Positions 6,164 to 55,428 of a stretch of DNA of 64,000 bases are shown piece after piece. Position 1 is the stretch's first letter, and every line of letters begins with the position of its first letter. Made by a program: the position numbers and the translations under genes. The notes beneath the pieces were generated by a model that saw nothing but the letters and a program-made list of their open reading frames with translations, made no database searches and was not told the origin of the DNA. The stretch covers positions 104,622-168,621 of the forward strand of contig JBEKHY010000003.1 in assembly GCA_050012035.1 (NCBI GenBank), in the 5' to 3' direction. The DNA is from Verrucomicrobiota bacterium (GTDB taxonomy: Bacteria > Verrucomicrobiota > Verrucomicrobiia > Limisphaerales > UBA11358).

Positions 6164-7078
6164 TTGCCGCGCCGTAGCGGAGCGAAGGCGGGCGCCTTTT
6201 CCCTCGTCGAAATCATGGTGGTGATCGGGTTGTTGTCGCTCATCGTGCTGGCGTTGATGGCGGTGTTCAACAGCGCGCAGACGGCGTTTCGGGCCAGCAT
6301 CACCCAGACCGACGTGCTGGAAGGCGGGCGCGCGACGATGGACCTGATGGCGGCCGATTTGCGGCAAATGGCGCCGTCATTGGGCAATAGCAATGATCTG
6401 ACCAGCGTTTATTACAGCACTAATCCGGTGAATTTTTACGCCAGCACCAACTCGTATTACACCCAGCCGTTAGTGCAACCCCTGACGGGCAGTGGTCAGT
6501 CGCGTACGAACGTGCTGGAAACCTTTTTCGTCCTGGGCCGTGGCAATCTGAACGGCCGTCCGACCTGGTTCGGCATGGGTTACGCGGTGGATGTGGCAAC
6601 GAACTCGAACTACTTGAACCCGCTTTATCACTTTTATATGACGACGAACGTCGAGGCTTCGCCCAATCCGGTGACACTTTTCACCAATTTCATGGCGTCG
6701 GTCGTAGCCGGCACCTTTACCAACGCCAACTGGAGCCATTTGCTCGACGGGGTGGTGGATTTGCGCGTGCGGGCCTACGACACCCATGGCCTCTGGATGA
6801 CCAACGGCTACACCTTCGGATACACCAACACCGCGCGCAACGTCCTCTTTCTTCCGTCCACCCTGGGCGAGTGCGGTTTTTACATGTTCAGCAACACGCT
6901 GCCCGCGTCGGTGGAAATCCAGCTTGGGGTGCTCGAAGACCGTGTGCTCCAGCGCGCCGCCACATGGCCGAACGGTTCCCAGCAGCAAAACAGCTACCTC
7001 CAGCAACAGGCCGGCAAGGTCCACCTCTTTCGCCAGCGCGTGACCATTTCCAATGTTGATCCCTCAGCCTACCAATGA
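6164..7078 (+). CDS. Prepilin-type pseudopilin
   Basis: Has GAFSLVEIMVVIGLLSLIVLALMAV. In-frame TTG 6164 gives leader MPRRSGAKAGA. The track start at 5924 overlaps the preceding gene by 150 nt. Confidence 0.75.
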   Translation: MPRRSGAKAGAFSLVEIMVVIGLLSLIVLALMAVFNSAQTAFRASITQTDVLEGGRATMDLMAADLRQMAPSLGNSNDLTSVYYSTNPVNFYASTNSYYTQPLVQPLTGSGQSRTNVLETFFVLGRGNLNGRPTWFGMGYAVDVATNSNYLNPLYHFYMTTNVEASPNPVTLFTNFMASVVAGTFTNANWSHLLDGVVDLRVRAYDTHGLWMTNGYTFGYTNTARNVLFLPSTLGECGFYMFSNTLPASVEIQLGVLEDRVLQRAATWPNGSQQQNSYLQQQAGKVHLFRQRVTISNVDPSAYQ

Positions 7079-7082
7079 AACT

Positions 7083-7235
7083 GAAAAGTGACATGTGGCA
7101 AGTGATGCCAAAAAGTGGCAAGTGGCAAGTGGCAGGTGACAAGATAAGCCGCACGCCGCATCCGTGTCACGTGTCACGTGTCACGTGTCACCCGTCACCT
7201 TTCCCCCGTCACGTGTCACCCGTCACCCGTCACCC
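7083..7235 (+). repeat. GTGACA/TGTCAC heptad hairpin element, expanded copy
   Basis: Same ~100-bp core as 4306-4413, with additional GTCACGT/GTCACCC heptamers (7165-7235). Confidence 0.85.
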
Positions 7236-14700: not shown

Positions 14701-17700
14701 ACCAATGCGATGACGGTGACCGACGCCGGCATTGCCACCAGTCCCACAAGCGACCAGCAGATCAATTTTCTCGTCGCCACCAATTCGCCGCTGCTCAACC
14801 AGTTCGTCGGCGCTAGCTCGCCGTTGCTGGGCACCAATACCATTCTTACCGGAACCAATTTCGGGTTTGCCCCCAACGCCATCCTTACGCTGGGTCAGAC
14901 CAACCAGTGGCATTTTTATGTGATTACCAATACGCTCGGTTATTCCAACGCCGCCTTCATCACGTTCCTGCCGGACACGCTTTCCATCCCGCGCATGGGT
15001 GTGTTTGCGGATTCGACGGCCAACGCCACCACCCCGGAAGCGGACATTGACGTGTATGTAACTACGGATTCGGGGTTGACGAATCTCAACCCGGTGACGA
15101 TTTCCAACTGCGTCCACGGCACCCAGGTTGGATTATCAGTTGGCATTCCGCCGGTCTTCAACGGCGCGTCATTGAGCCGCGGCGGCACCGAGTTCGTTGC
15201 GGACACGAACTCCCAGCCCCAGGAAATCTATTACATCGGCGTGCAGTCGGAGAGCCAGATGGCATCGGAATACGATTTTCTGCCCATCTTCAGCCAGACG
15301 CCGTTCAGCACGTTGAATAACGGCGTTCAGACCGTCAATGGGCAGCTACTCCCGGTCAACATCCCCGACGGCAACCTGCCGCACCCGGGCATCGCTTACA
15401 TTTTCGGGCTGGCCATTTATCCGATGACCGCGAATCAGGTCATCGCGAACGACGCGATTGTTCACACGAATTATGGCGACCTCATCGGCACGCTCAATCA
15501 CAACGGCGTCCGGACGGTGCTCAACAACCACGATGAGTTCGGCGGTGCGCCGGGACCTTTCACTTTTAGCTATGATGATTTTCCGGGCGGCACCAACCGG
15601 GCGTCGGATGGACCGGGCAGTCTGCTGAACTTCACCGGCAAGGAAGGCATCGGCCCGTGGATGCTGGTTGAAGCGGACACGCACCCGACCCAGGCCGGCT
15701 ACGTGTCGAACTACAGTCTGACCATTACACCTCACCAAAACGCCGCCAACGGCATTTACATCACACTCCAACCGGGCCAGTCTTACCGGGATTACATTGA
15801 CGCGCCGGTAGGCTATACCAGCTTTACGGTGTTTGCGACGAATCTGCCGCCGCCCCTTCCTGCACCAATGCAACTCTTTGTCGAACCAGTGCCAAATGTG
15901 GTTCCACCACTTCCACCAGCGACCGACACCAATGAATTGGGGCCAGCAGGGCTGACCAATGGTGTTATACCGGGCAATTCGCTCTCAGTGGGTCCGCCGC
16001 TGACGCCGGGACGTTATTGGTATGTCGTTTACAACCCGCTCGGCAACCCGCTCGCTACGACGACAAACCTTTATATTCTTGCCAAGTTGAACTTCTCGCA
16101 GTCGGCGATTACGACGGTGGATTATCGTTCGAGCGGGCCGGTGCCGATTTTGGATGACGCGGTGTCGTATTCGATCATCAACGTGCCGAACACGGACACC
16201 ATCCAGGACTTCAACGTGGGGCTGCGGGTGGACCATCCGCGCATTTCGGACCTGGTGTTTCATTTAATCACCCCGGACGGCACGCGCTATCTGCTGATGG
16301 AAAACCGGGGCGGCACCAGTACCAACGGCTGCGGCGCAACCATCACCAACAGTTTCTTTGCCCCGGCATCGTCTTCCGGCAGCTATCAGCCCTCCACCAA
16401 CGTCATTGACACCGGCGAAACCGCCGGCTCGTTCACCGTCAACTACAATTTCTTCCCCGTCCCGGACGAGATGGAAATATTTTACGAGGGCACCGTGCTC
16501 ACCAACACCGGGTTCATCAGCGGCCCCGGTCAGTTCAACCTCAACTTCGGCCCCGGCACCAGCACCCAGATCACGGTCGTCATGAACCCGAACAGCAATC
16601 CGATCCAGGCCACGTACTGGACTTACACCGTCAGCGGTTCCCAGACCCACTTCCTTTACCTCGCGTTCACCGAGAACACGAACCTGACAACCACGCCCAT
16701 CAAGTACGCGCCGCCGCCGTTTGTGCCCGTGTATTTCACGACCAATTTCACCCTGGGCGATTTTGACTTCGCGGCGGCGGGGGATTATGTGGCGCCCACG
16801 AACGTGGCCGGCTGGGGCGTGACCACCAACCAGGTGAGCGTGGTCAATGACCCGCCCAATGCCCCGGTCGGAAACCAATTTCTGGCATTGGTGCTCGGGA
16901 CCATTACCACAAACCTGCCCACCATCCCCGGTGTGACCTACACCCTCAGTTACAACTATCGCGGGCCGGGCGTCGTCGGCTGGTGGCGCGGTGAAAACAC
17001 TACGACCAATGAACTGGCGGGAGTCAATGATGGTATCGGGAATCCTACCTATGGCGCCGGAAAGGTGGGCAATGGTTTCGTAATCAGCGACGCCAACGCT
17101 TACGTGGAAATTCCCGCCAGTTCGTCGCTGGACGTTGGTTCGGGACCCGGACTGACTTTGGAAGCGTGGATCAATCCCACCGATGTGACCAGTGGCGCTA
17201 TTCATCCGGTTTTTGAGTGGAACGACGCTATCAATGCACAAACCACCGGCCTCAGCGGAGTTTACTTGTGGGTAACATCCCCCGGCGTTCTTACCGCCAA
17301 CCTCGTGGATGCCAATACTGACTCAACGAATGTCTTCCAAACGGGACCAAACGCGATCTCGGCGAATGCTTTTCAACATGTGGCGCTGACTTACAACCAA
17401 ACGACCGGTGTGGCGATTCTCTATACGAATGGGGTCGCTGCTGCCAGCACTAATTTGGTCATCGTTCCACAAACGAGCTACAATTTGTGGCTGGGGTATA
17501 ATCCCGGCAACCCACTAGGCATGGCCAGCGACCACCCCGCCGTTTTCGATGGTACGATTGATGAACCCAGCATCTACAACCGCGCCCTTTCGGCGAGTGA
17601 AATCAAGGCCATTTATACCCTGGGCGGCGCGGGCAAATTCTTTCAGAGCTCCGAGGTTTCGGCTCCGGAGAACCTCGCCGTGGCGAGCGTCACCATTCCC

Positions 17701-20700
17701 GGAGTCGGCACCAGTGTCATTTATGGCAACAATACCACCTGGCAGTCGGGCGGGGCCACCTTCACGGCCGCCTGGACCCAGACGCCGGTGACTATCAGCG
17801 GGATTGAGCCGGGGATTTTGCTGGATGACTTCTCCCTGTCCGGGGCGAAAGGCGGCAATCTGTATTACCAGCCGGAAGAGGACATGAGCGCCATCAACGG
17901 CACCAGCGCCAAGGGCACCAGCGGCAAGGGCACATGGACCCTGGAAATTCAGGATGACCGCGCGGGCGACGCCGGCACGCTTCTGGGCTGGCAACTGGAA
18001 TTCCTCTTTGCCAACACCAATGTCATACCGCCACCGCCCACCCTCATCGGCGGCCAGCCGCAAACGAATGTCATTCCCCCGGGCGGTTTCGCGTATTTCG
18101 GCGTCCTCGTGCCCGCAAACGCGGACATCGCCACGAATATCCTGCTGTTCAGCACCGGGCCGGTGAACCTGTGGTTTAACTCAAACAACCTGCCCGTCGG
18201 CGCAAGCCCGCCGGATTATCTGCTGATGGGCACCGCAACCAATGGCGTTTCAATTTTGACCACCACGAGCGTGCCGACGAACATCGTGCCCGGCTCGATT
18301 TATTATCTGGGCGTGCAAAACCCGAACAGTTACACCGTCACCAACGCCATCGAAGTGGACTTTCATTATTTGACCGCGGCCAGCCCGCCCATCGTCATCT
18401 CCGGCATCATGGCCACCAACATCGGCGGGAAGTTCGGTTTCCTGCTCACCTGGTATGCCCCCACCAACGATATCTTCATGGTGCAATGGACGGGCAGCCT
18501 CAATCCGCCCGTCACGTGGAACACCTTCACCAACATCATCACGTACACGTCGCTTACGCCCACGAACGGCATTGGCTTCTTCGAGTTCTTTGATGATGGC
18601 TCGCAGACCGGCGGGTTTGGCCCCCAGCGCTTTTACCGGTTGCTCCTGATAGCGCAAAGCCTGATCAACGGCCAGACGTACACCATTGCCCCCGGAGCCA
18701 CTAACTTCTTTTCGGTCAACGTGCCGACCAACGCGGATTTCGCCACCAACAGTCTGCTGTTCGCCACCGGGCCGCTGAACATCTGGTTCGACACGAATGC
18801 GCCGCCCACGACCGATGTCTTTCTGTTCAGCGGGACCAGTGGCTCCTACATCCTGTCCACGACCGGCACTCCGCCGCTGGTGCCCGGCGGGACTTATTAT
18901 CTGGGCGTGCAAAACACAAACAGTTTCAGCGTGACTTACGCCCTCGCGGTGGACTTTCATTTGTTGTTGCCCCCGCCCCCCATTTTCATCTCCGGCATCA
19001 CCTACACCAACATCGGCGGGACGAATGGGTTCCTGCTCACGTGGTATGCCCCCACCAACGATATCTTCATGGTGCAATGGACGGGCAGCCTCAATCCGCC
19101 CGTCGCGTGGAACACCTTCACCAACATCATCACTTACACCGGCCCGCCGCCGCCACCCACAAATGGCATCGGCCTGTTCAGCTTCTTCGATGACGGCTCG
19201 CAGACCGGCGGGTTTGGCCCCCAGCGCTTTTACCGGCTGCTGCTGGTGGGCAGCCTCGCCGGCGGTGTGCCGCAGACAAACTCCGTTTTGACCGGCGGCC
19301 TGGATTACTTCCGGGTCAACGTGCCGACGAACGCGGATTTCGCCACCAACACCCTGCTCTTTGCCGGCGCGCCGGTGAACGTGTGGTTCGCCACGAACCC
19401 CCCGCCCGCCACCAATGTCTTTCTGTTCAGCGGAACCAATGGGTCTTACACCCTGTCAACGACCGGCACCCCGCCGCTGGTGCCCGGCGGGACTTACTGG
19501 CTGATCGTGCAAAACACGAACAGTTTCACCGTCACTTACGGCCTCGAAGTGGACTTTCATTTGTTGTTGGCCCCGCCCCCCATTTTCATCTCCGGCATCA
19601 CCTACACCAACATCGGCGGGACGAACGGGTTCCTGCTCACGTGGCTCGCGCCGACCAACGACGTTTTCCAGGTGCAATGGTCGGACACGTTGTCGCCGGC
19701 GAACTGGCAGTTCTTCACCAATTTTATTTATTACACCGGCCCGCCCACGCCCACGAACGGGTGGTTCTCCTTCTTCGACGACGGCTCGCAGACCGGCGGG
19801 TTTGGCCCCCAGCGCTTTTACCGGCTGCTGCTGGTGGGCAGCCTCGCCGGCGGTGTGCCGCAGACAAACTCCGTTGCCACCGGCGGCCTTGATTACTTCC
19901 GGGTCAACGTGCCGACGAACGCGGATTTTGCCACCAACACCCTGCTCTTTGCCGGCGCGCCGGTGAACGTGTGGTTCGCCACGAACCCCCCGCCCGCGAC
20001 CAATCTCTTTTTGTTCAGCGGAACCAATGGGTCTTACACCCTGTCCACGACCGGCACTCCGCCGCTGGTGCCCGGCGGGACTTACTGGCTGATCGTGCAA
20101 AACCCGAAAAGTTTCACCGTCACTTACGGCCTCGAAGTGGATTTCCACCTGCAGACCGCGGCGAACATTCCGATTACGGTTTCGGGCATCACGTTCACGA
20201 ATCTGAACGGAACGAACGGTTTCCTGCTCACGTGGCTCGCGCCGACCAACGACGTTTTCCAGGTGCAATGGTCGGACACTTTGTCGCCGGCGAACTGGCA
20301 GTTCTTCACCAATTTTATTTATTACACCGGCCCGCCCACGCCCACGAACGGGTGGTTCTCCTTCTTCGACGACGGCTCGCAAACGCCGCCCGGTTTGCCG
20401 CCGGCGCGTTATTACCGGATCGTGCTGGCCGGCTCGGGCGCGTCAACGCACACCAACGCGGTGTTCCTCAGCAGCGTCGTCTCGACCAACATGACCGGGA
20501 CGAACGGTTTCTGGCTCACGTGGTCCGCGCCGACGAATTATCTCTTCGAGGTGCAATGGACAACCAATCTGGTGCCGGTCGTCACGTGGCGCACGTTCCC
20601 GGACATCATTGGTTACAGCACACTCGTCGGCCCCTCGAACAGCCTGTTCAATTTCTTTGACAATGGCGCGCAAGGCGGCCTCGGCCCGTTGAAATTTTAC

Positions 20701-20721
20701 CGGCTCCTCCTGCTGCCGTAG
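11788..20721 (+). CDS. Giant secreted S8 (subtilisin-family) peptidase with P-domains, a LamG-type domain and C-terminal tandem repeats
   Basis: 2977 aa with an N-terminal signal anchor (MRSRRIILISACLLLVAGAWFF). Catalytic triad contexts: VEVNDSGID, DGHGTHVAGIIAG, GTSMSAADVSG. Proprotein-convertase P-domain-like segments (e.g. DHPRISDLVFHLITPDGTRYLL, GTWTLEIQDDRAGDAGTLLGWQLEF). LamG-like segment (LTLEAWINP...FDGTIDEPSIYNRALSASEI). Confidence 0.9.
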   Translation: MRSRRIILISACLLLVAGAWFFWPRGNGRAGSSTLRSIATEDGSNRPHKAVAPTVRSGPTVAQATPLTFLSTNNPRAAAAARARAYRFRFRLANTTKTIGELTRDPHAILLANALIDTEAKLDLAIPKNLQATGDPGAYIVQAHGPIDNAFRATLAAAGAQIVSYIPNNAYLVNLSASGANSIASEGFSVIPYEPYYKLSSSLLAAVANNQPAGELKVAAFPGTADATKTALAKIGVTVVAEETTPLGPLFVLQNVSDVTAVAQIPTVHIVEPSYKRVPANDLSRATVGVAANAQTTNNYMNLSGANVLVEVNDSGIDATHPDLLPRVSGDLPTSLVDTDGHGTHVAGIIAGNGAMSTTVSNVPGSTFGTNGFAAVGQFRGMAPAAQLISVGSLGGDTNATSDRYLQETPAQRNALISNNSWNYDGDNDYDLAAASYDAAVRDALAQVTGSQPVLFVFSAGNDGNGDDTDSSPNGTPDSIESPATAKNVITVGAIQELRNINNQVTNADGTVTTPWFNETSTDSRVYSSSGRGNVGILTEGTYGRFKPDVVAPGTFIVSTRSSQWDIGTFFFASPTNISVGINHIAPIKPNRLGANTFPPVFTNTVQVTIQLLPNGDSPVPFPNLPIYFGLLSLTPVYDHFTTNNQVSIPLDGGLTIADILNTESIYGDSYAFYYAISNSTSEPITMDVVTEIFTTNNPGNSQLVLSNLNQFIGTPNPNSTGPGPYYRYETGTSMSAADVSGVLALIDDYFTNTLRTVPSPALLKALLINGARPTQGYNLLVQNNNNPEGWGLISLPDSLPSGVTNVSGPNASCSSFFIDQSPTNALATGDRHTFLVSVNPTNGAQAYPLRVTLAWTDPPGDPAAAVKLVNNLDLVVTNLDNPANPVIFYGNDIGASSSFPFNNAHGTNDPANFDNINNIENVFISSQPQLGTNYSITVIGRGVNVNAVTAQTNNIVQDFALVISCGEGEVTNAMTVTDAGIATSPTSDQQINFLVATNSPLLNQFVGASSPLLGTNTILTGTNFGFAPNAILTLGQTNQWHFYVITNTLGYSNAAFITFLPDTLSIPRMGVFADSTANATTPEADIDVYVTTDSGLTNLNPVTISNCVHGTQVGLSVGIPPVFNGASLSRGGTEFVADTNSQPQEIYYIGVQSESQMASEYDFLPIFSQTPFSTLNNGVQTVNGQLLPVNIPDGNLPHPGIAYIFGLAIYPMTANQVIANDAIVHTNYGDLIGTLNHNGVRTVLNNHDEFGGAPGPFTFSYDDFPGGTNRASDGPGSLLNFTGKEGIGPWMLVEADTHPTQAGYVSNYSLTITPHQNAANGIYITLQPGQSYRDYIDAPVGYTSFTVFATNLPPPLPAPMQLFVEPVPNVVPPLPPATDTNELGPAGLTNGVIPGNSLSVGPPLTPGRYWYVVYNPLGNPLATTTNLYILAKLNFSQSAITTVDYRSSGPVPILDDAVSYSIINVPNTDTIQDFNVGLRVDHPRISDLVFHLITPDGTRYLLMENRGGTSTNGCGATITNSFFAPASSSGSYQPSTNVIDTGETAGSFTVNYNFFPVPDEMEIFYEGTVLTNTGFISGPGQFNLNFGPGTSTQITVVMNPNSNPIQATYWTYTVSGSQTHFLYLAFTENTNLTTTPIKYAPPPFVPVYFTTNFTLGDFDFAAAGDYVAPTNVAGWGVTTNQVSVVNDPPNAPVGNQFLALVLGTITTNLPTIPGVTYTLSYNYRGPGVVGWWRGENTTTNELAGVNDGIGNPTYGAGKVGNGFVISDANAYVEIPASSSLDVGSGPGLTLEAWINPTDVTSGAIHPVFEWNDAINAQTTGLSGVYLWVTSPGVLTANLVDANTDSTNVFQTGPNAISANAFQHVALTYNQTTGVAILYTNGVAAASTNLVIVPQTSYNLWLGYNPGNPLGMASDHPAVFDGTIDEPSIYNRALSASEIKAIYTLGGAGKFFQSSEVSAPENLAVASVTIPGVGTSVIYGNNTTWQSGGATFTAAWTQTPVTISGIEPGILLDDFSLSGAKGGNLYYQPEEDMSAINGTSAKGTSGKGTWTLEIQDDRAGDAGTLLGWQLEFLFANTNVIPPPPTLIGGQPQTNVIPPGGFAYFGVLVPANADIATNILLFSTGPVNLWFNSNNLPVGASPPDYLLMGTATNGVSILTTTSVPTNIVPGSIYYLGVQNPNSYTVTNAIEVDFHYLTAASPPIVISGIMATNIGGKFGFLLTWYAPTNDIFMVQWTGSLNPPVTWNTFTNIITYTSLTPTNGIGFFEFFDDGSQTGGFGPQRFYRLLLIAQSLINGQTYTIAPGATNFFSVNVPTNADFATNSLLFATGPLNIWFDTNAPPTTDVFLFSGTSGSYILSTTGTPPLVPGGTYYLGVQNTNSFSVTYALAVDFHLLLPPPPIFISGITYTNIGGTNGFLLTWYAPTNDIFMVQWTGSLNPPVAWNTFTNIITYTGPPPPPTNGIGLFSFFDDGSQTGGFGPQRFYRLLLVGSLAGGVPQTNSVLTGGLDYFRVNVPTNADFATNTLLFAGAPVNVWFATNPPPATNVFLFSGTNGSYTLSTTGTPPLVPGGTYWLIVQNTNSFTVTYGLEVDFHLLLAPPPIFISGITYTNIGGTNGFLLTWLAPTNDVFQVQWSDTLSPANWQFFTNFIYYTGPPTPTNGWFSFFDDGSQTGGFGPQRFYRLLLVGSLAGGVPQTNSVATGGLDYFRVNVPTNADFATNTLLFAGAPVNVWFATNPPPATNLFLFSGTNGSYTLSTTGTPPLVPGGTYWLIVQNPKSFTVTYGLEVDFHLQTAANIPITVSGITFTNLNGTNGFLLTWLAPTNDVFQVQWSDTLSPANWQFFTNFIYYTGPPTPTNGWFSFFDDGSQTPPGLPPARYYRIVLAGSGASTHTNAVFLSSVVSTNMTGTNGFWLTWSAPTNYLFEVQWTTNLVPVVTWRTFPDIIGYSTLVGPSNSLFNFFDNGAQGGLGPLKFYRLLLLP
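18040..20425 (+). repeat. Tandem array of four ~196-199-aa units inside the S8 gene, plus a partial fifth module at 20440-20718
   Basis: The string cagaccggcgggtttggcccccagcgcttttaccgg occurs at 18604, 19201 and 19789, giving spacings of 597 and 588 nt. Units 3 and 4 share long nucleotide-identical runs. Each unit ends in ...FFDDGSQTGGFGPQRFYRLLL. Confidence 0.9.
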
Positions 20722-20965
20722 CCAGGCGTTTTCCGAGCTGGTGCATTTTTTGAGCGGGTACAGACGCGGCCATGTTCCGAAGGAACATTTGAGGATAGCC
20801 CGGCATTTTAACCCCGACATCGGTTGTCGGGGTCAAACGCCGGGTTACCCTCAGGAAATCCCTGCGAGCCTACACCAGGTTTGCCATTACACGTTGTCCC
20901 CAAATTGGGTCGTGTATCGCTAGAGTGTTGCCGGAAGCCCTGAAATTGGGCTTGCGGAAACGGAT

Positions 20966-21208
20966 GTGTTTCGCAAGAGTGGCCAATCTATGACTGCAAC
21001 CAATGAAGATTTGACTAAAGCCGTTCTCGCGCTTTCCAGCCTTATGGCAACTGTGCTAGAGATGCAGGCGACAATGGCGGGGATTGTGACGCCTTTGGCG
21101 TCAAATCTGAACGGGAAGGAGAAAGCAGATTTACTATACGCCGTGCAAGAAGGTCGTACTCTTGCAGCCGGGTTACGAGAGACTGCCAAACAATTGGCAG
21201 AGTCGTAA
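20966..21208 (+). CDS. Hypothetical small protein (transposon passenger)
   Basis: 80-aa ORF inside the IS. No recognisable motif. An alternative start at 20990 is possible. Confidence 0.35.
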   Translation: MFRKSGQSMTATNEDLTKAVLALSSLMATVLEMQATMAGIVTPLASNLNGKEKADLLYAVQEGRTLAAGLRETAKQLAES

Positions 21209-21343
21209 CCGTGCGGTTTGAATCTACTTTCAATCTGTCTTGATTGTCCATTTGTTGTTTCACCTCCTTTCATTGGGAAAAAATTTCTCATGGCGAACGC
21301 AGAACATTTTTGGGCGCGGAAATCAATCATAATTTACCCTTTC

Positions 21344-22306
21344 TTATTGACTCGTTGCATTGTCAATCAGTTCTTCAATTGTCCATGCCCTGTCCGTCAA
21401 GCCTACGCCGTGCGCTGGCGTTGTGCCGAGCGTATGATGAATTTTGCAAAAGTTGTAAGCGGCAACGAACAGACTGACGGCGTGCCGATGATTGGTCAGC
21501 TTGCGTGAATAGCCTAAACCCAAACGGGCAAAGCGTTTGTTGAAGTGGCGGACAGACAGATTGGCGCGTTCAACAAATGACGTGCTGATTCTGTCCGCGC
21601 GCGGCGCTCCGGCGCGAATCCGCACGCGAACGCCCGTGCAACGTGGCGGCGAATATCGCCGTTGCGCCTCCACGCGCTCATTGAGCGGCGTCTCGTAAAT
21701 CTTTTGCATGGTGGCAAAGTCCAAGCGTTCCAATAGATATTTCCTGATGATAAATGGATAGGAACGCCATGAATCGGTTGTGATTTGAATGCGGCCAGCA
21801 ATCCGCGCGGCCACATCCGCGATAAAGGTGTCCGTGTTGTCAAAATCACGTTTGCCGGTGTGATAGCTGACAATGAATTTCTCGCGCGCGGTGACGGCAA
21901 GATAGGTGTATTGGTCGCCGCGCTCCACATGGCTTTTAATCGTTTGCCGTTGGCTCGCTCCGACGCGCGCCCACAGTTCGTCTATTTGCAAAGAACCAAT
22001 TGTGAGATTGCGGACAACTCTATCGTGAAACGCATCGCACTTTTGCCCGACTGTTGCCAACACATTTAAGACCGTGTTTGGAATGCAATTTACCAGGCGC
22101 GCAGTCCCGCGAACGCCAACGCCCTCGGTCAAGAGCTTGATGATCTGAACCGCTTTGTCGTGGTCAATCCGCAAATCGTCCAACGGTTGCGCGGCGGAAA
22201 ATGATTTGCCGCATCGCAGACATTGGAAACGTTGCACCATACGATTTTTATTCCGATATGTTCCTGACTTTTTACTCTCACCGCCACAACAACAACACGT
22301 CGTCAT
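21344..22306 (-). CDS. IS1-family-like DDE transposase
   Basis: 320 aa. N-terminal Cys-rich zinc finger (CCCCGG...FQCLRCGKSF). DDE-context motifs IDELW, ITTDSWRSY and TSFVERANLSVRHFNKRFARLGLGYSRKLTNH...YNFCKIHHTLGTTPA, as in single-ORF IS1-type transposases. Confidence 0.8.
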   Translation of the reverse strand: MTTCCCCGGESKKSGTYRNKNRMVQRFQCLRCGKSFSAAQPLDDLRIDHDKAVQIIKLLTEGVGVRGTARLVNCIPNTVLNVLATVGQKCDAFHDRVVRNLTIGSLQIDELWARVGASQRQTIKSHVERGDQYTYLAVTAREKFIVSYHTGKRDFDNTDTFIADVAARIAGRIQITTDSWRSYPFIIRKYLLERLDFATMQKIYETPLNERVEAQRRYSPPRCTGVRVRIRAGAPRADRISTSFVERANLSVRHFNKRFARLGLGYSRKLTNHRHAVSLFVAAYNFCKIHHTLGTTPAHGVGLTDRAWTIEELIDNATSQ

Positions 22307-22541
22307 TTTTAGCTCGACTTTCTTCGGCCAAAACTCTAACGTGCCCTTGTATCTGCAAGGATATGCAATCAGTTAGGTCTTTGGCCTACGGTTGCGCCCT
22401 GCCGGTGCTTAGAACCACTGACAGGGCATGATTTTAGTTTTGTTCTTTGGGATTAGGGCGCGGTGTCTTGCGCGAATGAAACGCAATTAACCGTTACGGC
22501 TTGTTCAGCCCCGCGTCCGTTCTCGAAAACTGGTTGTTTGA

Positions 22542-22615
22542 ATGGCTGGACAGGAATTGAACCTGTATCTTGCCCCTTCGCATGAGGCTGCTCTGTCCAT
22601 TTGAGCTACCAGCCC
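22542..22615 (-). tRNA. tRNA-Arg (anticodon GCG), located inside the transposon
   Basis: The reverse complement folds by hand into a cloverleaf: GGGCTGG-TA-GCTC-AAATGGACA-GAGC-A-GCCTC-ATGCGAA-GGGGC-AAGAT-ACAGG-TTCAATT-CCTGT-CCAGCCA-T. Position 1:72 is a G:A mismatch and no CCA is encoded. Confidence 0.75.
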
Positions 22616-22647
22616 TTCCCCGGCGGCAGTAACCCGCCGGGGAAATT

Positions 22648-23043
22648 TTATCCGGCCATTTCTGCCTTTCGTTTGTAGGTTCGGTTTCCTTCACCATCGG
22701 TCGTGATGATGATGAAACCCACCTTGCCAAGCCGGGTCAAAACGGTGCTTATCGCCGAACCGAAAATTCGCTGGCGAGTGTCAAAGCCGCGACTTTGCAG
22801 AAGCTCCCGAACCCTAGCCGTGCAAAACACCTGCTCCGGTTCGGCGTCAAATATGTTTCTCACGGCCTCGGTTATTCCAAACGGAGTAGTTACACCGTTT
22901 TGGCTAGTTGGTGATTGTGTGATTGAATCGTAGCGCCGTTGCGCTGATTCGAGCCGGGCAATGATTTTACCAAGCTCTTTGCAACGCAGTTCGTGCTTAA
23001 CCAATTCAGACCTTACTTGTTCTAATGTTATTGTGTTTTTCAT
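22648..23043 (-). CDS. Hypothetical protein, possibly winged-helix (transposon passenger)
   Basis: 131 aa from ATG 23043; the track ORF starts at 23085. AT-rich. The C-terminal part (AISTVLTRLGKVGFIIITTDGEGNRTYKRK) looks wHTH-like, which is a weak inference. Confidence 0.45.
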   Translation of the reverse strand: MKNTITLEQVRSELVKHELRCKELGKIIARLESAQRRYDSITQSPTSQNGVTTPFGITEAVRNIFDAEPEQVFCTARVRELLQSRGFDTRQRIFGSAISTVLTRLGKVGFIIITTDGEGNRTYKRKAEMAG

Positions 23044-23250
23044 TTCAACATCCGCCAAGCATACTGTGGCAATAACGTCAATCATGTTTATTCAATTCCA
23101 ATCACAAGTGATTGCAAATCAAATAGAAATAGATTTAACTACACTCTGGCGATACACGACCCCAAATTGAGGTGCGCCCGTGTTTTTCTTTGCTTTCCCG
23201 GCCGTTTGGGATAGCCTCTTCCTTTTGTTGAAAGCGAGAAATTCGCGGCC

Positions 23251-35256: not shown

Positions 35257-35457
35257 GTGAAGACGACGCTGCCTGAACCTGAAATTGTCACGCGCAAGGG
35301 CAAGCCCGTTTCCGTCATTCTGCCGATTGCCGATTACGAAGAATTGCTGGAACGGGCCGAAGATGCCTCTGACATTGCCTGGCTGAAGGCTGCCCGCAAA
35401 AAGCCGCGACAATATCGTCCACTCGAAGATTATCTGGCCGGACGCCGTCGCCGCTGA
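35257..35457 (+). CDS. Phd/YefM-type antitoxin
   Basis: 66 aa (GTG start). The pattern ...VTRKGKPVSVILPIADYEELLERAEDASD is the typical Phd/YefM N-terminal fold pattern. Sits 2 nt before a RelE/ParE gene. Confidence 0.8.
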   Translation: MKTTLPEPEIVTRKGKPVSVILPIADYEELLERAEDASDIAWLKAARKKPRQYRPLEDYLAGRRRR

Positions 35458-35459
35458 CC

Positions 35460-35714
35460 ATGTATCGCGTGTTCCTTGAACGCTCGGCCGAACGCGACCT
35501 TGGCCGTCTTTCCTCCGAGGTTCACGGCCGCGTTATTGCGGCAATTCAGGAACTCGCGAACAATCCGCGCCCGCCCGGTTGCCGCAAATTGGTTGGCAGC
35601 AAAAACGACTGGCGCATTCGCGTGGGCGACTACCGGGTGATTTATGAAATTGCCGATACCATCCGCGTGGTGCGCGTCAACCGCGTCCGCCACCGCCGTG
35701 AAGTGTATCGCTGA
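35460..35714 (+). CDS. RelE/ParE-family toxin
   Basis: 84 aa. Has ...AERDLGRL...[42 protein letters not shown]...[12 protein letters not shown], the hallmark RelE/ParE pattern. Confidence 0.85.
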
Positions 35715-35866: not shown

Positions 35867-36865
35867 TTATTTTGCGATGACTAGTGACTTAAACTCATCG
35901 AACTGACTGGTATTTAAGTTTCCTACAATTTTACGAAAGGCTTCGTCAACAATTTGAAGAGTTATCCTTACCACTCCAACATCCAAAAATTTATTCCCTT
36001 GTTTCGCGTAAGGAGGATATTTCTGCTCATACGCCGCAAAAGCATTGGCGCCTAGCTGCAACTTTTCATCCAGCACATTGATGGATTTGATTCCAGCCTT
36101 GTTCATCTCTTCAATCACCATCCCGATCATCACAGCATCTGAACGTTCTCGGTTTGGAAATTGTTTTTTGAGATAAGCAGACATCGTATCAAAATTTATT
36201 TCTGTGTTTGAGGTCTCTTTTGGGCGATGCACAGCACCAGATGCCCTTTTGCGAGATATCTTGCTCGACTTAAAAAACATTTCGAAGTGCTGATCCGCGA
36301 CATAAAACAGTCCGCTCAACGCATTGAAATCCCGCTTTAATTCCGACGGCACGGCATTGGGTGTTTTATAATCCAAATAATGCGAGATGATCGACCATGC
36401 ATGCATTGAGATAGTCCTAACTTGAATCTCAAATCGCAGCAATTTTAGTCCGTCATATCTAGGGCCTTTGTGAGAGCGAGGAAGAGTGGCAATTAAATGA
36501 ACTGACAAATAGCCGAAAACATTTTCTTCTTTTGTAACGCGTTTATCATCGACCTCGACAATTTTGAAGCTCTTCCTAAGAACGGCAAATACGCGATCTA
36601 AATCAGATAAAAAAAGGCAAATGATCCGAAAACCCAAAATGTCATTGAGTTGATTAATTGGGTCAGCGAGTTCATCTCTCTCTGCTTTCTTAATTATTGA
36701 GTCGAAATTCTTGATTCGGTGTTCAATCGCATGAATCGGTATTTTTGCGCCTTTGAGCTGCTCGCTAAGAATAAATTGCACCTCATCCTCCAACCGCGCA
36801 TACAGTGGTTGAGATGAATTGTATTGGGCGAGTAGCGCTGATTTGTCCAAAACGACCGTTGCCAT
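35867..36865 (-). CDS. RelA/SpoT-domain nucleotide pyrophosphokinase (small alarmone synthetase / toxSAS-like) with an uncharacterised C-terminal domain
   Basis: 332 aa, clearly AT-richer than neighbours. Synthetase motifs: HRIKNFDSIIKK, NDILGFRIICLF, FGYLSVHLIA, FEIQVRTISMHAWSIISHYLDYK. The ~130-aa C-terminal extension has no recognised motif. Confidence 0.85.
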   Translation of the reverse strand: MATVVLDKSALLAQYNSSQPLYARLEDEVQFILSEQLKGAKIPIHAIEHRIKNFDSIIKKAERDELADPINQLNDILGFRIICLFLSDLDRVFAVLRKSFKIVEVDDKRVTKEENVFGYLSVHLIATLPRSHKGPRYDGLKLLRFEIQVRTISMHAWSIISHYLDYKTPNAVPSELKRDFNALSGLFYVADQHFEMFFKSSKISRKRASGAVHRPKETSNTEINFDTMSAYLKKQFPNRERSDAVMIGMVIEEMNKAGIKSINVLDEKLQLGANAFAAYEQKYPPYAKQGNKFLDVGVVRITLQIVDEAFRKIVGNLNTSQFDEFKSLVIAK

Positions 36866-51558: not shown

Positions 51559-52053
51559 ATGGCCCAGAACAATTCGCCAATTGACCCGCGAGTCCGCATC
51601 GGTCACGTGCATTTGAAGGTGGCGGACCTCGAACGTGCATTGAAATTTTACCACGGTGTGCTCGGATTTGAGCTGACGCAGCATCTGGGCCGGCAGGCAG
51701 CGTTTCTTTCCGCCGGCGGTTATCATCATCACATCGGATTGAACATCTGGGAAAGCGCGGGCGGCCCGCCGCCACCGCCCGGCACGACCGGTCTGTATCA
51801 CCTGGCCATTGTGTATCCGACCCGCACGTTGCTGGCTGATGCGTTGCGTCGCTTGCTGGCCGCGGGCATCGAACTTGATGGTGCCTCGGACCACGGCGTG
51901 AGTGAGGCATTGTATCTGCGCGACCCGGACGGCAACGGCGTTGAACTTTACTGGGACCGTCCAAAAGAGCAATGGCCGCGCACACCCGATGGCGGCCTCG
52001 CAATGTTCACTCATGCGCTGGATTTGGACGCGTTGCTGAAAGAGGCTCCATGA
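51559..52053 (+). CDS. VOC (glyoxalase/dioxygenase) family protein
   Basis: Has IGHVHLKVADLERALKFYHGVLGFEL...YHHHIGLN...HLAI...ALYLRDPDGNGVELY. Confidence 0.85.
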   Translation: MAQNNSPIDPRVRIGHVHLKVADLERALKFYHGVLGFELTQHLGRQAAFLSAGGYHHHIGLNIWESAGGPPPPPGTTGLYHLAIVYPTRTLLADALRRLLAAGIELDGASDHGVSEALYLRDPDGNGVELYWDRPKEQWPRTPDGGLAMFTHALDLDALLKEAP

Positions 52054-52238
52054 AAGGCATGGAAGGATTGGAAAAGACCGGAATTTCAGCCCTGCCATCC
52101 AATCGCCGCCCGAGCAGTAGCACCAGATGGCATCTGGCAATGTTGCCATGTTGACGGCTGGCTGGATTGCTGGCAAGCGATGGCCGTGAAATTTCTCTTT
52201 GCCCGCTTGTCCAAATCAGCCACTCTCTGGCTAACGTT

Positions 52239-53429
52239 ATGATCAAGTGGATCAAAATTCGCGACTTCAAAAGCATTCGTGAAATCGAGTTAGAACTTGA
52301 TCCAGTCACGGTGCTTGTTGGTCGCAGCGGAACTGGAAAATCCAATCTCGTCCAAGCAATACGCTTCTTACGCAACTACCTCCTTAACCCAGTTGAGGCA
52401 ATCCAATACGAATTCGGATGGGATCGGATTGTCCCGGTTGGAGAAACGAAACCAAAAACATCGATCGAGGTATGCTTCTCAGTTCCTGGCGAAGAATCCC
52501 GATATACTTACTTCATCGGTTTTGGACCACCTGGCCTAACCCAGTTCCCACATAATGCTATGGGGCTAAAGGAGGAACGATTAAGCCTAAAAAATAATCC
52601 GATTTTCTCGCGGATCAAAAGAGAAAATAATCAATGGGAATGGAAAATAGTCCCGCAGGTGTCGCCTATGCCGCAGCACTATGACACACCGCTGCTAGGT
52701 CTTTTCCCATCGCTTCAGCAGGTGGTATTCGCTAATGCTGCCCTTTCCACTGGGATTGGCTACTATCACTTTCCTTCAACGACATTGACTTCTGTAAACG
52801 CGCCACAGCACGGCCAAGTTTTCTTACAAAAACTCCCCGGTCTTTCGGACAACGCAGCAAACTTTCGTGATGTCATGCGTGGTATCACTCAGGATTTTCA
52901 TCACCCGAACATCCGCAAGAACCTTACGGCCGCCTTGCAGGCTGTCAATCCGTCCATTGAATCTATCGAGCTTGATTCCCTAATGAATCCGTCGCGCACT
53001 ATCGTTGGCCATAAAGCCGCTGGCCATGTGTTTGAACTTTCCCTTGAACAAGAGTCAGACGGTTTGCGTCGCTTCTACGCACACCTGTTAGCCCTTTATC
53101 AGACACCCTCCAAGTTGGCACTTGTGTTTGAGGAGCCGGAGAACGCTATTTTCCCTGGTGCACTGTCCCTGTTGGCGGACGAGTTCAAAGCCGCACCGCG
53201 TGAAAATCGGGGCCAAGTAATTCTCACCAGCCATAGTCCCATGTTCCTCGATTCCTTCGATGTGGATAACGTCAGGGCGGTTGACATGCAGGACGGGAAG
53301 ACTGTTGTTGGTCGTGTTTCAAAAGAACAGCGTCAGGCTGTAAAAGACCAACTTCTTACCACGGGTGACCTGCTTGTTGTGGACAGAGCCAAATTGGACG
53401 AAGTCACGAAGCCGCAGCAGAACACATGA
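52239..53429 (+). CDS. ABC/SMC-type (AAA_21-like) ATPase
   Basis: 396 aa, AT-rich. N-terminus is IKIRDFKSIREIELELDPVTVLVGRSGTGKSNL (Walker A). C-terminus is LALVFEEPENAIFPG (Walker B) plus ILTSHSP (H-loop). Its stop overlaps the next start (ATGA at 53426-53429). Confidence 0.85.
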   Translation: MIKWIKIRDFKSIREIELELDPVTVLVGRSGTGKSNLVQAIRFLRNYLLNPVEAIQYEFGWDRIVPVGETKPKTSIEVCFSVPGEESRYTYFIGFGPPGLTQFPHNAMGLKEERLSLKNNPIFSRIKRENNQWEWKIVPQVSPMPQHYDTPLLGLFPSLQQVVFANAALSTGIGYYHFPSTTLTSVNAPQHGQVFLQKLPGLSDNAANFRDVMRGITQDFHHPNIRKNLTAALQAVNPSIESIELDSLMNPSRTIVGHKAAGHVFELSLEQESDGLRRFYAHLLALYQTPSKLALVFEEPENAIFPGALSLLADEFKAAPRENRGQVILTSHSPMFLDSFDVDNVRAVDMQDGKTVVGRVSKEQRQAVKDQLLTTGDLLVVDRAKLDEVTKPQQNT

Positions 53430-54118
53430 AACGCCTGGTCCTCCTCGGTGAAGGACACGGTGAGGTCCTTGCTCTCCCCATCCTCATCGGAAAGCTCCTC
53501 TTGGAGAAAGATCGCGATCGTACACTCATTGTCGATAAAGACGTCATCCGTTTCGCATCCTCCAGAGTTATGCGACCGGACAGAACAGGACAGCAACCAG
53601 ACTATACCGAATGGGTTAAGGGCGTAACCATCGCCGCACGGCGTTCAAATGCCGGAGCTGTACTCGCAGTTTACGATGGCGACTTGAAGTTCTTTCCCCC
53701 CGGCTCCAACTCGCCGTTCTGTGCTGCCACGGCTGCCAAATCGCTGGCGGTTGCTGCGGCTGGAGCGGGTGCAGGCAGAAACTTTTCCCTGTCGGTAGTA
53801 TTTGCCTGCGTTGAGTATGAAACTTGGCTTGTTGCCGGCGCCGAATCTTTCAGAGGCCGCTTCTTGAGCGATGGACGCCCCGCCCTCTCTCCGACTGCAA
53901 ATTTTCCTCCAGGTGATCCTGAATCTCACGGCAAACGGTGGCTGGAATACAACTGCCCGAATTACCGCCCGAGCCGTGACCAGAGTGCGTTGACAGAATT
54001 GCTAGACCTCCAGTGTGTCCGAAGTAAAAATCTCAGGTCATTTCAACGGTTTGAGCATGCGCTTGACCAGTTGCTTGAAGCCGTAGCCGGCAACTCGCAT
54101 ATTTCAACGCCCTGTTAA
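53426..54118 (+). CDS. TOPRIM-like DUF4276-type protein
   Basis: 230 aa. N-terminal MKRLVLLGEGHGE (conserved Glu of the TOPRIM strand), then a later VYDGD (DxD). Family assignment is from memory of DUF4276 sequence patterns. Confidence 0.65.
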   Translation: MKRLVLLGEGHGEVLALPILIGKLLLEKDRDRTLIVDKDVIRFASSRVMRPDRTGQQPDYTEWVKGVTIAARRSNAGAVLAVYDGDLKFFPPGSNSPFCAATAAKSLAVAAAGAGAGRNFSLSVVFACVEYETWLVAGAESFRGRFLSDGRPALSPTANFPPGDPESHGKRWLEYNCPNYRPSRDQSALTELLDLQCVRSKNLRSFQRFEHALDQLLEAVAGNSHISTPC

Positions 54119-54372
54119 TGCCCGAAATTCGTTTTGACCAAACTTCGCAATCCCTAACGTGCCATCGCGTGAGACACGCGACGCTACAAATTCAACATGG
54201 CCAGTTCGGCTTCGAACAGTTCCTTGGTCTTGGCCTGGATGTCGGCGATCTTTAAACTCATACATTTCTCCGGCTCGCAGGGGACTGTGAGCCCAACCTG
54301 TGTCAGCCTCGTTTGACAGATTCGGAAATGGGTTTACTTGTTACCAATCGCCGGAAACGGCGGGGTTGTAAC

Positions 54373-55428
54373 ATGAGAATTGCAGAAAAAGATTTTGATG
54401 TGTTGCCGGTAACAAATCAGTCGGCGGCGTTGGATGTTGAGTCCACAGTCCACAGTGAGCCGGTGTCGGACGGCTCATTGCTAGACGCATATTCCAATGC
54501 CGTCGTCAACGCGGCGGAAACGGTCAGCCCGTCGGTAATAAAAATTGACGTGCGTAAAAAAGGCAATGGGCGCAATGGCGGGGAGGCTGGCGGCAGCGGG
54601 TCGGGATTCATTATCACGCCGGATGGATTCACCCTCACCAACAGCCACGTGGTCCATGGCGCGGACCGGATTGAAGTGACGCTGGCCGATGGCCGGCACC
54701 CGGAGGCGCGCGTCGTCGGTTCGGACCCGGAAACGGACCTTGCCGTCATCCGGATTTATGCGCCAAATCTCAAGCCGGTGCGCTTGGGCGATTCGAACCA
54801 GTTGCGTGTAGGCCAGCTCGCCATCGCCATCGGCAATCCGTACGGGTTTCAATACACGGTGACGGCGGGTGTGGTCAGCGCACTGGGCCGGTCGTTCCGC
54901 GCCAGTTCGGGCCGGCTCATGGACAACATTATCCAGACGGACGCGGCGTTGAATCCGGGCAATTCCGGCGGGCCGCTGGTCAATTCGCGCGGCGAAGTCA
55001 TCGGCGTGAACACGGCGGTAATTCTGCCGGCGCAGGGGCTCTGCTTTGCCATCGCCATCAACACGGCCAAATACATTGCCGGCTGGCTCATCAAGGACGG
55101 CGTCATCCGGCGCAGTTACATCGGCGTAGGCGGGCAGACGGCGAAAATCCATCGGCGGCTGGTGCGGTATTACAATCTGCCGAACGAAACCGGGATGCTG
55201 GTGATTGGCGTGGAGCCGGGCAGTCCGGCGAGCCGCGCCGGTTTGCGCGATGGCGATATGATTGTGGAATGCGGCGGGCATACGATTGCCGGGATTGATG
55301 ACCTGCACAAATTACTGACGGGAGACCAGGTCGGCGTGCGTTCGGCGATTGTGGTTCTGCGGGGCACGGAGAAGTTGCGCCTGGAAATCGTGCCGGAGGA
55401 ATCCGGCGCGAGGTTGATGTTGAATTGA
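54373..55428 (+). CDS. htrA: HtrA/DegP-family (S1C) serine protease with PDZ domain
   Basis: Has TNSHVV (His), D.AV (Asp) and GNSGGPLVNSRGEVIGVNTAV (Ser). PDZ-like C-terminus: GSPASRAGLRDGDMIV. Confidence 0.9.
   Translation: MRIAEKDFDVLPVTNQSAALDVESTVHSEPVSDGSLLDAYSNAVVNAAETVSPSVIKIDVRKKGNGRNGGEAGGSGSGFIITPDGFTLTNSHVVHGADRIEVTLADGRHPEARVVGSDPETDLAVIRIYAPNLKPVRLGDSNQLRVGQLAIAIGNPYGFQYTVTAGVVSALGRSFRASSGRLMDNIIQTDAALNPGNSGGPLVNSRGEVIGVNTAVILPAQGLCFAIAINTAKYIAGWLIKDGVIRRSYIGVGGQTAKIHRRLVRYYNLPNETGMLVIGVEPGSPASRAGLRDGDMIVECGGHTIAGIDDLHKLLTGDQVGVRSAIVVLRGTEKLRLEIVPEESGARLMLN

Follow-up and report, generated by a model that had tools for sequence, protein, structure and literature searches.

The question raised by this locus is whether two short, AT-rich genes lodged between housekeeping genes of a Verrucomicrobiota bacterium constitute an antiphage system and, if so, of which kind. 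The genes lie in a stretch of 64,000 nucleotides from contig JBEKHY010000003.1 (positions 104,622-168,621, assembly GCA_050012035.1), which was analyzed as a whole and is referred to here as the window; coordinates are window positions unless a related locus (numbered L) is named. An original prediction, made from the letters of the window, had described the two genes as an uncharacterized module in which an ABC-type (ATP-binding cassette) ATPase is paired with a TOPRIM-like protein. We found that the pair is a typical, intact, standalone member of the candidate antiphage family HEC-01; it is real and not a new system. We consider it probable that it is a horizontally acquired HEC-01 cassette that most likely serves immunity against phages or other mobile elements as an ATPase-gated nuclease.

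The two genes are a HEC-01 pair

Gene 1 (HEC-01A; 52239-53429, + strand) encodes 396 amino acids (aa) from the ATG at 52239, and gene 2 (HEC-01B; 53426-54118, + strand) encodes 230 aa. Both genes are intact and co-oriented, and the ATG of gene 2 shares bases with the TGA of gene 1 in the ATGA at 53426-53429 (+ strand), a stop/start overlap indicating that the two are coupled in translation. A longer version of gene 1, starting from the TTG at 52167 that a mechanical search for open reading frames (ORFs) returns, was ruled out because each of the 33 aligned homologues starts at MIK, the residues encoded from the ATG at 52239. The G+C content (GC) is 0.46-0.52 over 52200-53400 compared with about 0.58-0.65 on either side, and at third codon positions (GC3) it is 0.51 in gene 1 and 0.54 in gene 2 compared with 0.72-0.80 in the neighbor genes. 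The upstream flank is a Glyoxalase/VOC gene (51559-52053; Pfam E value 1.5e-17) and the downstream flank is a gene for a Trypsin_2 plus PDZ protease of the HtrA type (54373-55428; 3.3e-35). Thus, the overlapping ORFs, the AT-richer block and the position between VOC and htrA genes, all of which had been proposed in the original prediction, were recovered in the sequence, by measurement of composition and by Pfam matches, respectively.

A PADLOC search, which had been suggested as a check on that prediction, recognized the pair as HEC-01A and HEC-01B. Gene 1 matched the HEC-01A model PDLC04178 (1.7e-50; residues 2-391 on profile positions 9-387 of 399), and gene 2 matched the HEC-01B models PDLC04196 (1.6e-23; residues 1-218 on profile positions 1-193 of 197) and PDLC04200 (2.6e-19). 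In Pfam, the best match of gene 1 was AAA_21 (2.6e-29) and gene 2 matched DUF4276 (1.6e-08; 35.5 bits against a gathering cut-off of 30.2). These matches are far beyond chance and, with both proteins covered over their full length and encoded by adjacent, co-oriented genes, the pair is a member of HEC-01.

Hma stands for helicase-methylase-ATPase. HEC-01, or Hma-embedded candidate 01, is listed in PADLOC-DB v2 and was described by Payne et al. (10.1101/2024.01.29.577857) as an ABC ATPase plus a TOPRIM protein, forming a cassette embedded in Hma systems; nesting within an Hma system is not required for membership by its authors. The copy in the window has the same two-gene design, the ABC ATPase first and the TOPRIM-like protein second, but is not embedded in an Hma or other multigene defense locus and stands alone between housekeeping genes; further, no helicase or methylase family recurred around 70 related loci. 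The design that the original prediction had likened to OLD, Gabija and PARIS is therefore the one that the HEC-01 authors describe, but its claim of an uncataloged module did not hold: PADLOC has listed HEC-01 by name as a candidate since 2023/24, and members of it have been tested twice, once with a negative and once with a positive outcome. In surveys of environmental samples, HEC-01 is reported to be one of the most abundant candidates (10.1101/2024.09.26.614923), and a wastewater study still treated it as an unvalidated candidate. The prediction was borne out in one further respect, as our search of the literature found no published mechanism for HEC-01 or any DUF4276 protein.

Gene 1 encodes an ABC-type ATPase

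To the AAA_21 match of gene 1, Pfam added AAA_15 (3.9e-21) and N-terminal Walker A matches of the SMC_N/AAA_23 type. The following motifs were read in the translation and compared in 34 homologues.

52320..52343, + strand: Walker A GRSGTGKS (G28-S35), with G28, R29, G31, G33, K34 and S35 invariant in the 34 homologues
53052..53063, + strand: ABC-signature-like motif ESDG (E272-S273-D274-G275), invariant in the 34 homologues
53127..53141, + strand: Walker B FEEPE (F297-E301) within LVFEEPENAIFPG, invariant in the 34 homologues
53232..53234, + strand: H-loop histidine H332 in TSHSP, invariant in the 34 homologues

The assignment of ESDG as the putative signature motif follows from its position ahead of Walker B. 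The AlphaFold2 model of gene 1 (mean predicted local distance difference test score, pLDDT, 76) gave 345 Foldseek matches in the PDB at E<=0.001, among them the ATPase heads of Rad50, SMC, PtuA (the Septu and retron effector ATPase) and OLD at E of about 1e-13. With the order Walker A, signature-like motif, Walker B and H-loop on an ABC head fold, gene 1 is an ABC-type ATPase of the AAA_15/AAA_21 group with a Rad50/SMC-like head, and the Walker A, distal Walker B and H-loop layout that had been read from the translation is in agreement with the profile searches.

Matches of gene 1 to models of other defense ATPases were considerably lower than that to HEC-01A. The best was AriA of PARIS (PDLC02980; 1.8e-30, the best stretch being mainly residues 201-338), followed by AbiLi (2.1e-26, covering part of the AbiLi profile only), Old (1.2e-17), GajA (1.4e-15), mad3 (5.9e-15) and NsnB (2e-13). 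Against the NCBIfam model MAD3, gene 1 scored 66 bits, with a cut-off of 420. In the PDB sequences, the best and sole solved relative was the Thermus OLD nuclease 6p74 (8.4e-12).

The matches to 6p74 and to the Old and GajA models favor the main rival to our reading, in which an OLD/Gabija-like, constitutive complex would nick or cleave DNA directly and would be regulated by ATP or nucleotide levels or by DNA ends, and not act as a release-type sensor on tRNA; the higher scores of gene 1 against AriA and AbiLi than against Old and GajA point the other way. A second alternative is a housekeeping repair pair. An ABC ATPase with a small TOPRIM protein is formally the layout of RecF (ABC/SMC-like ATPase) and RecR (TOPRIM domain, without nuclease activity), and the pair would on this account load or regulate recombination proteins and not act in immunity. 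Consistent with such a role, gene 1 had weak N-terminal matches to RecF, RecN and Rad50 models in addition to the Rad50 and SMC fold matches, but the RecF match, with 24 bits where the cut-off is 172, was confined to the Walker A region, whereas both proteins of the pair match defense-candidate models over their full length.

Gene 2 encodes a putative TOPRIM-like nuclease

We next considered whether the DUF4276 protein encoded by gene 2 has the features of a TOPRIM nuclease. Its AlphaFold2 model (pLDDT 86, predicted template modeling score 0.85) has the order β1-α1-β2-α2-β3-α3-β4 (strand 2-8, helix 16-28, strand 34-36, helix 61-71, strand 76-83, helix 100-114 and strand 120-126) and ends in a C-terminal half made of helices. 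In an alignment of 87 diverse family representatives (about 37% mean identity), the sole invariant residues were G10, D84, E130 and E132, and E9 and D86 were conserved in at least 90%. The acidic residues among them are located as follows.

53450..53452, + strand: E9, the candidate TOPRIM glutamate, in MKRLVLLGEGHGE, directly after strand 1; at least 90% conserved
53675..53683, + strand: D84-G85-D86 (YDGD), the candidate TOPRIM DxD, directly after strand 3 (76-83); D84 invariant, D86 at least 90% conserved
53813..53821, + strand: E130-Y-E132, a second acidic pair, after strand 4; both invariant in the 87 representatives

In the model, strands 1, 3 and 4 each have acidic residues at their C-terminal end, which is the arrangement expected for TOPRIM, with a glutamate at the end of strand 1 and a DxD at the end of strand 3. 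E130 and E132 may, by comparison with OLD nucleases, contribute a second metal site.

Profile matches of the family pointed weakly in the same direction. When the 87 relatives of gene 2 were compared singly with Pfam, OLD-like_TOPRIM (PF20469) was the second commonest match, albeit weak (12 of 87, the best at 0.0052), and RloB was found once; in two members that were checked, the PF20469 match joined residues 4-27 to profile positions 5-29 of 67, the region of the strand-1 glutamate. Against PADLOC, all 87, and with them the whole clade of Verrucomicrobiota and Planctomycetota, matched HEC-01B models, with weak matches to GajA and, in eight of the 87, to mad4. Gene 2 of the window itself had no AriB/DUF4435 match at E<=1 in Pfam or PADLOC and no mad4 match in PADLOC. 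In a viral structure library, the best Foldseek match of the gene 2 model was an RloB-like protein, which was weak (E 0.026, template modeling score 0.41).

Our remaining fold comparisons did not lend support to the TOPRIM part of the reading. When the gene 2 model was compared with the PDB by Foldseek, no match reached E<=0.001 and the top 50 contained no TOPRIM entry. Profiles of close (A1) and diverse (A4) DUF4276 proteins gave only chance-level matches to the PDB sequences, and no solved DUF4276 structure or solved relative was found with them. An hhalign comparison of A4 with a 53-sequence alignment of YbjD-type OLD TOPRIM domains was not significant (probability 1.9%) and paired the E130/E132 stretch, not the N terminus of gene 2; that of A4 with the single YbjD was likewise not significant. 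Similarly, hmmsearch of the YbjD-type TOPRIM profile against all DUF4276 proteins was not significant, with weak alignments on two alternative stretches.

We note that HEC-01B contains two stretches resembling the strand-1 motif of OLD TOPRIM domains (hhhVEGxxExW), one at the N terminus (53435-53460) and one at strand 4 (VVFACVEYETW, 53786-53830), and that the weak profile alignments choose either of them; a second metal site or an old duplication are options.

In the literature, Payne et al. reported that HEC-01B resembles TOPRIM proteins in structure and shares a conserved metal-binding site with the OLD protein of B. pseudomallei (10.1101/2024.01.29.577857), and the Menshen paper assigned DUF4276 together with RloB to the Toprim superfamily with Glu and DxD residues (PMC12065111). 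These published structural comparisons are the main support for a TOPRIM fold of gene 2. On the basis of these comparisons, the conserved Glu, DxD and ExE residues, the order of the elements and the weak, recurrent profile matches, we regard gene 2 as a putative TOPRIM-like nuclease effector with a metal-binding catalytic core. Of the earlier proposal that gene 2 is a DUF4276/TOPRIM protein with a Glu plus DxD signature, the family and the conservation of E9, D84 and D86 stood, but our own structure searches recovered no significant TOPRIM; further, the link between DUF4276 and TOPRIM was already in print (Toprim superfamily, PMC12065111).

The results with gene 2 also bear on the DNA-cutting, OLD/Gabija-like alternative. 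The weak OLD-like_TOPRIM and GajA matches of its relatives are as that account would have it, and the invariant E130 and E132 recall the two-metal site reported for OLD nucleases (10.1101/2024.01.29.577857). On the other hand, the invariant acidic residues of catalytic type are not what the RecF/RecR-like account leads one to expect.

The pair is inherited as one unit

To describe the family around the pair, one genome per species was scanned and 71 loci were recovered. Those at 54-68% identity were mostly from Verrucomicrobiota, with one from Binatia; those at 35-42% identity were almost all from Planctomycetota, with a few distant ones in Hymenobacter and others. The clade of this HEC-01 pair is thus concentrated in Verrucomicrobiota and Planctomycetota, and its patchy distribution across phyla, Binatia and Hymenobacter included, argues against a housekeeping repair pair.

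An ATPase homologue lay directly upstream of the DUF4276 gene on the same strand in 73 of the 74 loci examined, and so the expectation that homologous pairs co-occur was confirmed. The ATGA overlap was present in 44 of the 61 loci in which both ORFs could be delimited, and five more had a 1-bp overlap of the TAATG type. Pairwise protein distances of HEC-01A and HEC-01B across 52 loci were correlated (r=0.86), and none of 999 Mantel permutations gave a value as high; within the close and distant subsets, the correlations were 0.74 and 0.76. Mean divergence was similar (0.56 and 0.57). This correlation reflects joint inheritance, which linkage alone could explain, and is therefore no sign of physical contact. 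Both genes are under purifying selection, with a ratio of nonsynonymous to synonymous substitution rates (dN/dS) of about 0.14 for each compared with an 84% relative. When the 532 neighbor ORFs within 6 kb were clustered, no family occurred in more than six loci and none at a fixed position, that is, no conserved third gene was found. Overall, genes 1 and 2 form a strict unit: they are translationally coupled, inherited together and co-diverging.

A compact, translationally coupled pair with a putative neutralizer encoded upstream is also what a selfish addiction or stabilization module of the toxin-antitoxin kind would look like; in such a module, the nuclease would act as a toxin that the ATPase neutralizes, the main effect would be self-maintenance on mobile DNA, and phage defense would be incidental or absent. 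In keeping with this alternative, decayed copies were found: in L004 and L007 (8819-10004), the ATPase is split into ORFs of 76 aa and 338 aa, and in L013 (9191-10681), the truncated N-terminal half of the ATPase is fused with the DUF4276 part in one ORF. By contrast, both proteins of the window keep all residues of catalytic type (Walker A, Walker B and H-loop in gene 1; E9, D84, D86, E130 and E132 in gene 2), and a full catalytic motif set in an ATPase under purifying selection would be needless for a simple antitoxin.

The pair lies in an insertion between VOC and HtrA genes

A scan of HtrA relatives returned related contigs in which the VOC and HtrA genes are directly adjacent, L091 (98% protein identity in AKR and 96% in VOC) and L089. 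Comparison with these empty sites by blastn delimited the inserted cassette.

52058..54280, no strand: inserted cassette of 2,223 bp; homology to L091 and L089 ends at 52057 and resumes at 54281
52058..52238, + strand: 5' leader of the cassette, inside the insertion and 5' of gene 1
54119..54280, no strand: 3' tail of the cassette, non-coding, within the insertion bounds from blastn

The insertion carries no integrase, transposase or evident target duplication. The leader presumably holds the promoter and translation start signals, and its final ~45 bp (about 52192-52236) recur at 84% identity in L084-L086, which have a different upstream gene (MazE-Fic). A scan of the cassette for promoters and terminators gave nothing above shuffled expectation: no sigma-70 consensus match was found in the leader (52058-52238) and no + strand terminator-like site in the 3' tail (54119-54280). 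Six metagenome contigs from the same population carried the cassette with 100% identity, and the genome of the window recurred in several metagenomes with the pair present each time. In conclusion, the cassette is horizontally acquired and self-contained. As an insertion of foreign composition that is missing in close relatives, the pair is ill suited to a housekeeping RecF/RecR-like role, to which we give hardly any credence in spite of the housekeeping character of most neighbors.

The same VOC-HtrA junction holds a different cargo of 2.7 kb in L111 (3210-5908), where we found matches to Vsr (4.2e-22), to a C5 DNA methylase (7.1e-21, the first 93 of 324 profile positions) and to a NOV_C/restriction-endonuclease-like protein (2.1e-11). 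From these matches, the L111 cargo reads as a restriction-modification remnant. The VOC-HtrA site behaves as a small hotspot for defense-type cargo and therefore provides independent contextual support for an immunity role of the pair. The setting differs from the defense island that the original prediction had looked for, in that the pair lies in a small insertion hotspot between housekeeping genes and in no classical defense island.

At this same site, L087 has an insert of ~130 bp (about 340-470) with inverted repeats, CCATTTTCAGGTAGTGCCCT ... AGGGCACTACCCATTTTCAG, which may be a miniature mobile element.

Among close relatives of the pair, the one in L084 (1195-1808 and 9343-12562) stands beside MazE-Fic, with a Rep protein and a phage-type integrase a few kilobases away, and the one in L001 (12805-13496) stands beside Fic/MazE and a DUF5131 phage-type gene. 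Such MazE-Fic, integrase and Rep neighbors belong to the defense and mobility context that favors an immunity role, but would also suit an addiction module. The cassette of the window, however, is chromosomal, without a mobility gene, and fixed and identical in the six metagenome contigs. Across the family, a minority of nearest neighbors matched defense models at E<=1e-10 (we estimate the share at roughly one in ten), each model being matched by one or two members only: type IIG and type I restriction-modification, DrmMI, mad3, mad8, PDC-M41B, PDC-M30B, PDC-M05B, PD-T4-2_B and PDC-S05.

Among known systems, a PARIS/AbiL-like arrangement is the most likely

We compared the pair with the named systems that combine similar parts. 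As in PARIS (the ABC ATPase AriA plus the DUF4435 TOPRIM nuclease AriB), an AAA_15/21 ATPase and a small effector of the TOPRIM type are encoded by two genes; outside HEC-01, gene 1 matches AriA best, and a published ATPase tree places DUF4276-associated ATPases (MADS3-4) among the AAA15/21 defense ATPases and groups them with PARIS-like systems (PMC11464382). Unlike in PARIS, the effector is a DUF4276 and not a DUF4435 protein, and the AriA match, which covers mainly residues 201-338, is far below the HEC-01A score. Further, PARIS is often found on phages and satellites (PMC11464382), whereas the viral and plasmid collections searched yielded no member of the present clade, and the Ocr trigger and tRNA target of PARIS are not known to apply to the HEC-01 pair. 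AbiL shares AbiLi with the pair by its match to gene 1, but no AbiLii match or gene was found.

In MADS, the ATPase Mad3 belongs to the AAA_15/21 group and Mad4 is homologous to DUF4276 (PMC12065111, PMC11464382), in line with the weak mad4 matches of some gene 2 relatives; the MAD3 score of gene 1 is nevertheless far under the cut-off, gene 2 of the window lacks a mad4 match, and no methyltransferase or mad genes adjoin the pair. Menshen resembles the pair in that NsnB matches gene 1 and some NsnC proteins carry a DUF4276 effector domain (PMC12065111), but no NsnA or NsnC match or gene was found at the pair. OLD and GajA share with the pair the logic of an ABC ATPase plus TOPRIM, the likeness of gene 1 to 6p74 by sequence and fold, and the weak OLD-like_TOPRIM and GajA matches among the DUF4276 family. 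They are, however, fused single chains, and Gabija needs the helicase GajB, whereas the pair consists of two separate proteins with no adjacent helicase of the GajB/UvrD type and no recurring neighbor family. Membership in MADS, PARIS, Gabija, AbiL or Menshen was rejected, as at least one defining component of each is missing or far under threshold.

Among known systems, the split sensor-effector arrangement of PARIS and AbiL is the most likely model for the pair, because gene 1 ranks AriA and AbiLi best after HEC-01A and because the effector is a small protein of its own. The main rival, which we judged unlikely, is the DNA-cutting, OLD/Gabija-like version. On the model we prefer, HEC-01A and HEC-01B would be made in fixed proportion and would assemble into a complex in which the ATPase keeps the nuclease inactive. 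HEC-01A would then sense a cue of infection, for example a phage protein or an abnormal nucleic acid, and the binding or hydrolysis of ATP would release or activate the DUF4276 nuclease. The latter would cut nucleic acid and stop phage replication, probably at a cost to host growth; candidate substrates are tRNA, the target of PARIS, and DNA, that of OLD and Gabija.

Several observations weigh against this ATPase-gated immunity reading, in addition to the fold searches with gene 2. Complex formation, trigger and substrate are all inferred by analogy with PARIS, AbiL, OLD and Gabija. In the hands of Payne et al., HEC-01 gave E. coli no protection against any phage tested, and most of their candidates were not enriched near defense genes (10.1101/2024.01.29.577857). 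In a cold-seep metagenome study, one HEC-01 cluster picked at random gave E. coli B protection from at least one of the phages T7, T5 and T4 (10.1101/2024.09.26.614923), but this positive report gives little detail. The defense phenotype of the family is thus contradictory, and the members tested came from other organisms and not from the present clade. Most of the 119 nearest-neighbor ORFs are housekeeping genes (dihydroxy-acid dehydratase, SHMT, aconitase, tRNA synthetases and sigma factors). Finally, tblastn of gene 2 against sequenced plasmids and phages found no relatives, nor did a pattern scan of IMG/VR contigs.

Some of these results cut both ways with respect to an addiction module. 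The negative one of the two defense tests (10.1101/2024.01.29.577857) is in its favor; the phage protection reported in the other study (10.1101/2024.09.26.614923) and the lack of plasmid or phage copies are against it, and overall we regard a selfish module of this kind as very improbable. It is distinctly unlikely, too, that standalone HEC-01 of Verrucomicrobiota and Planctomycetota works unlike PARIS, OLD and Gabija, for example with the two acidic sites of the DUF4276 protein (E9/D84/D86 and E130/E132) acting on an undescribed substrate or trigger; on the same reading, the bare cassette may also spread among intergenic hotspots without an integrase or transposase of its own.

The unit behavior of the pair, the purifying selection, the lack of a third gene, the distribution of the clade and the insertion site are new results of the present analysis, which leaves the existing knowledge of the HEC-01 family unchanged. 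The present copy and its relatives offer a clean, minimal and strongly conserved two-gene version of HEC-01 for biochemistry, with a list of invariant residues to mutate and with natural empty-site and alternative-cargo controls. In addition, the locus reveals a small insertion hotspot for defense-type cargo in a poorly studied phylum.

Other features of the window

Apart from the cassette, several features of the window were observed. A gene at 35867-36865 (- strand) encodes a RelA_SpoT-domain protein of 332 aa (Pfam 1.8e-22; GC 0.41) with a match to the PADLOC candidate PDC-S33 (3.2e-15). It lies about 16 kb upstream of the pair and may be a second gene for defense or for a toxin. Beside it, at 35257-35714 (+ strand), are two small adjoining ORFs of 66 aa and 84 aa, which, by their translations only, read like an antitoxin of the Phd/YefM type and a toxin of the RelE/ParE type. 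A low-GC block (0.48-0.53) at 20920-23085 lies beside tRNA-Arg(gcg) at 22540-22616 and contains an ORF (21344-22306, - strand) with sub-threshold matches to DDE transposases (IS240 and IS1); this block is probably a mobile-element remnant. Two very large ORFs of 1454 aa and 2977 aa, at 7075-11439 and 11788-20721 (+ strand), have a host-like composition.

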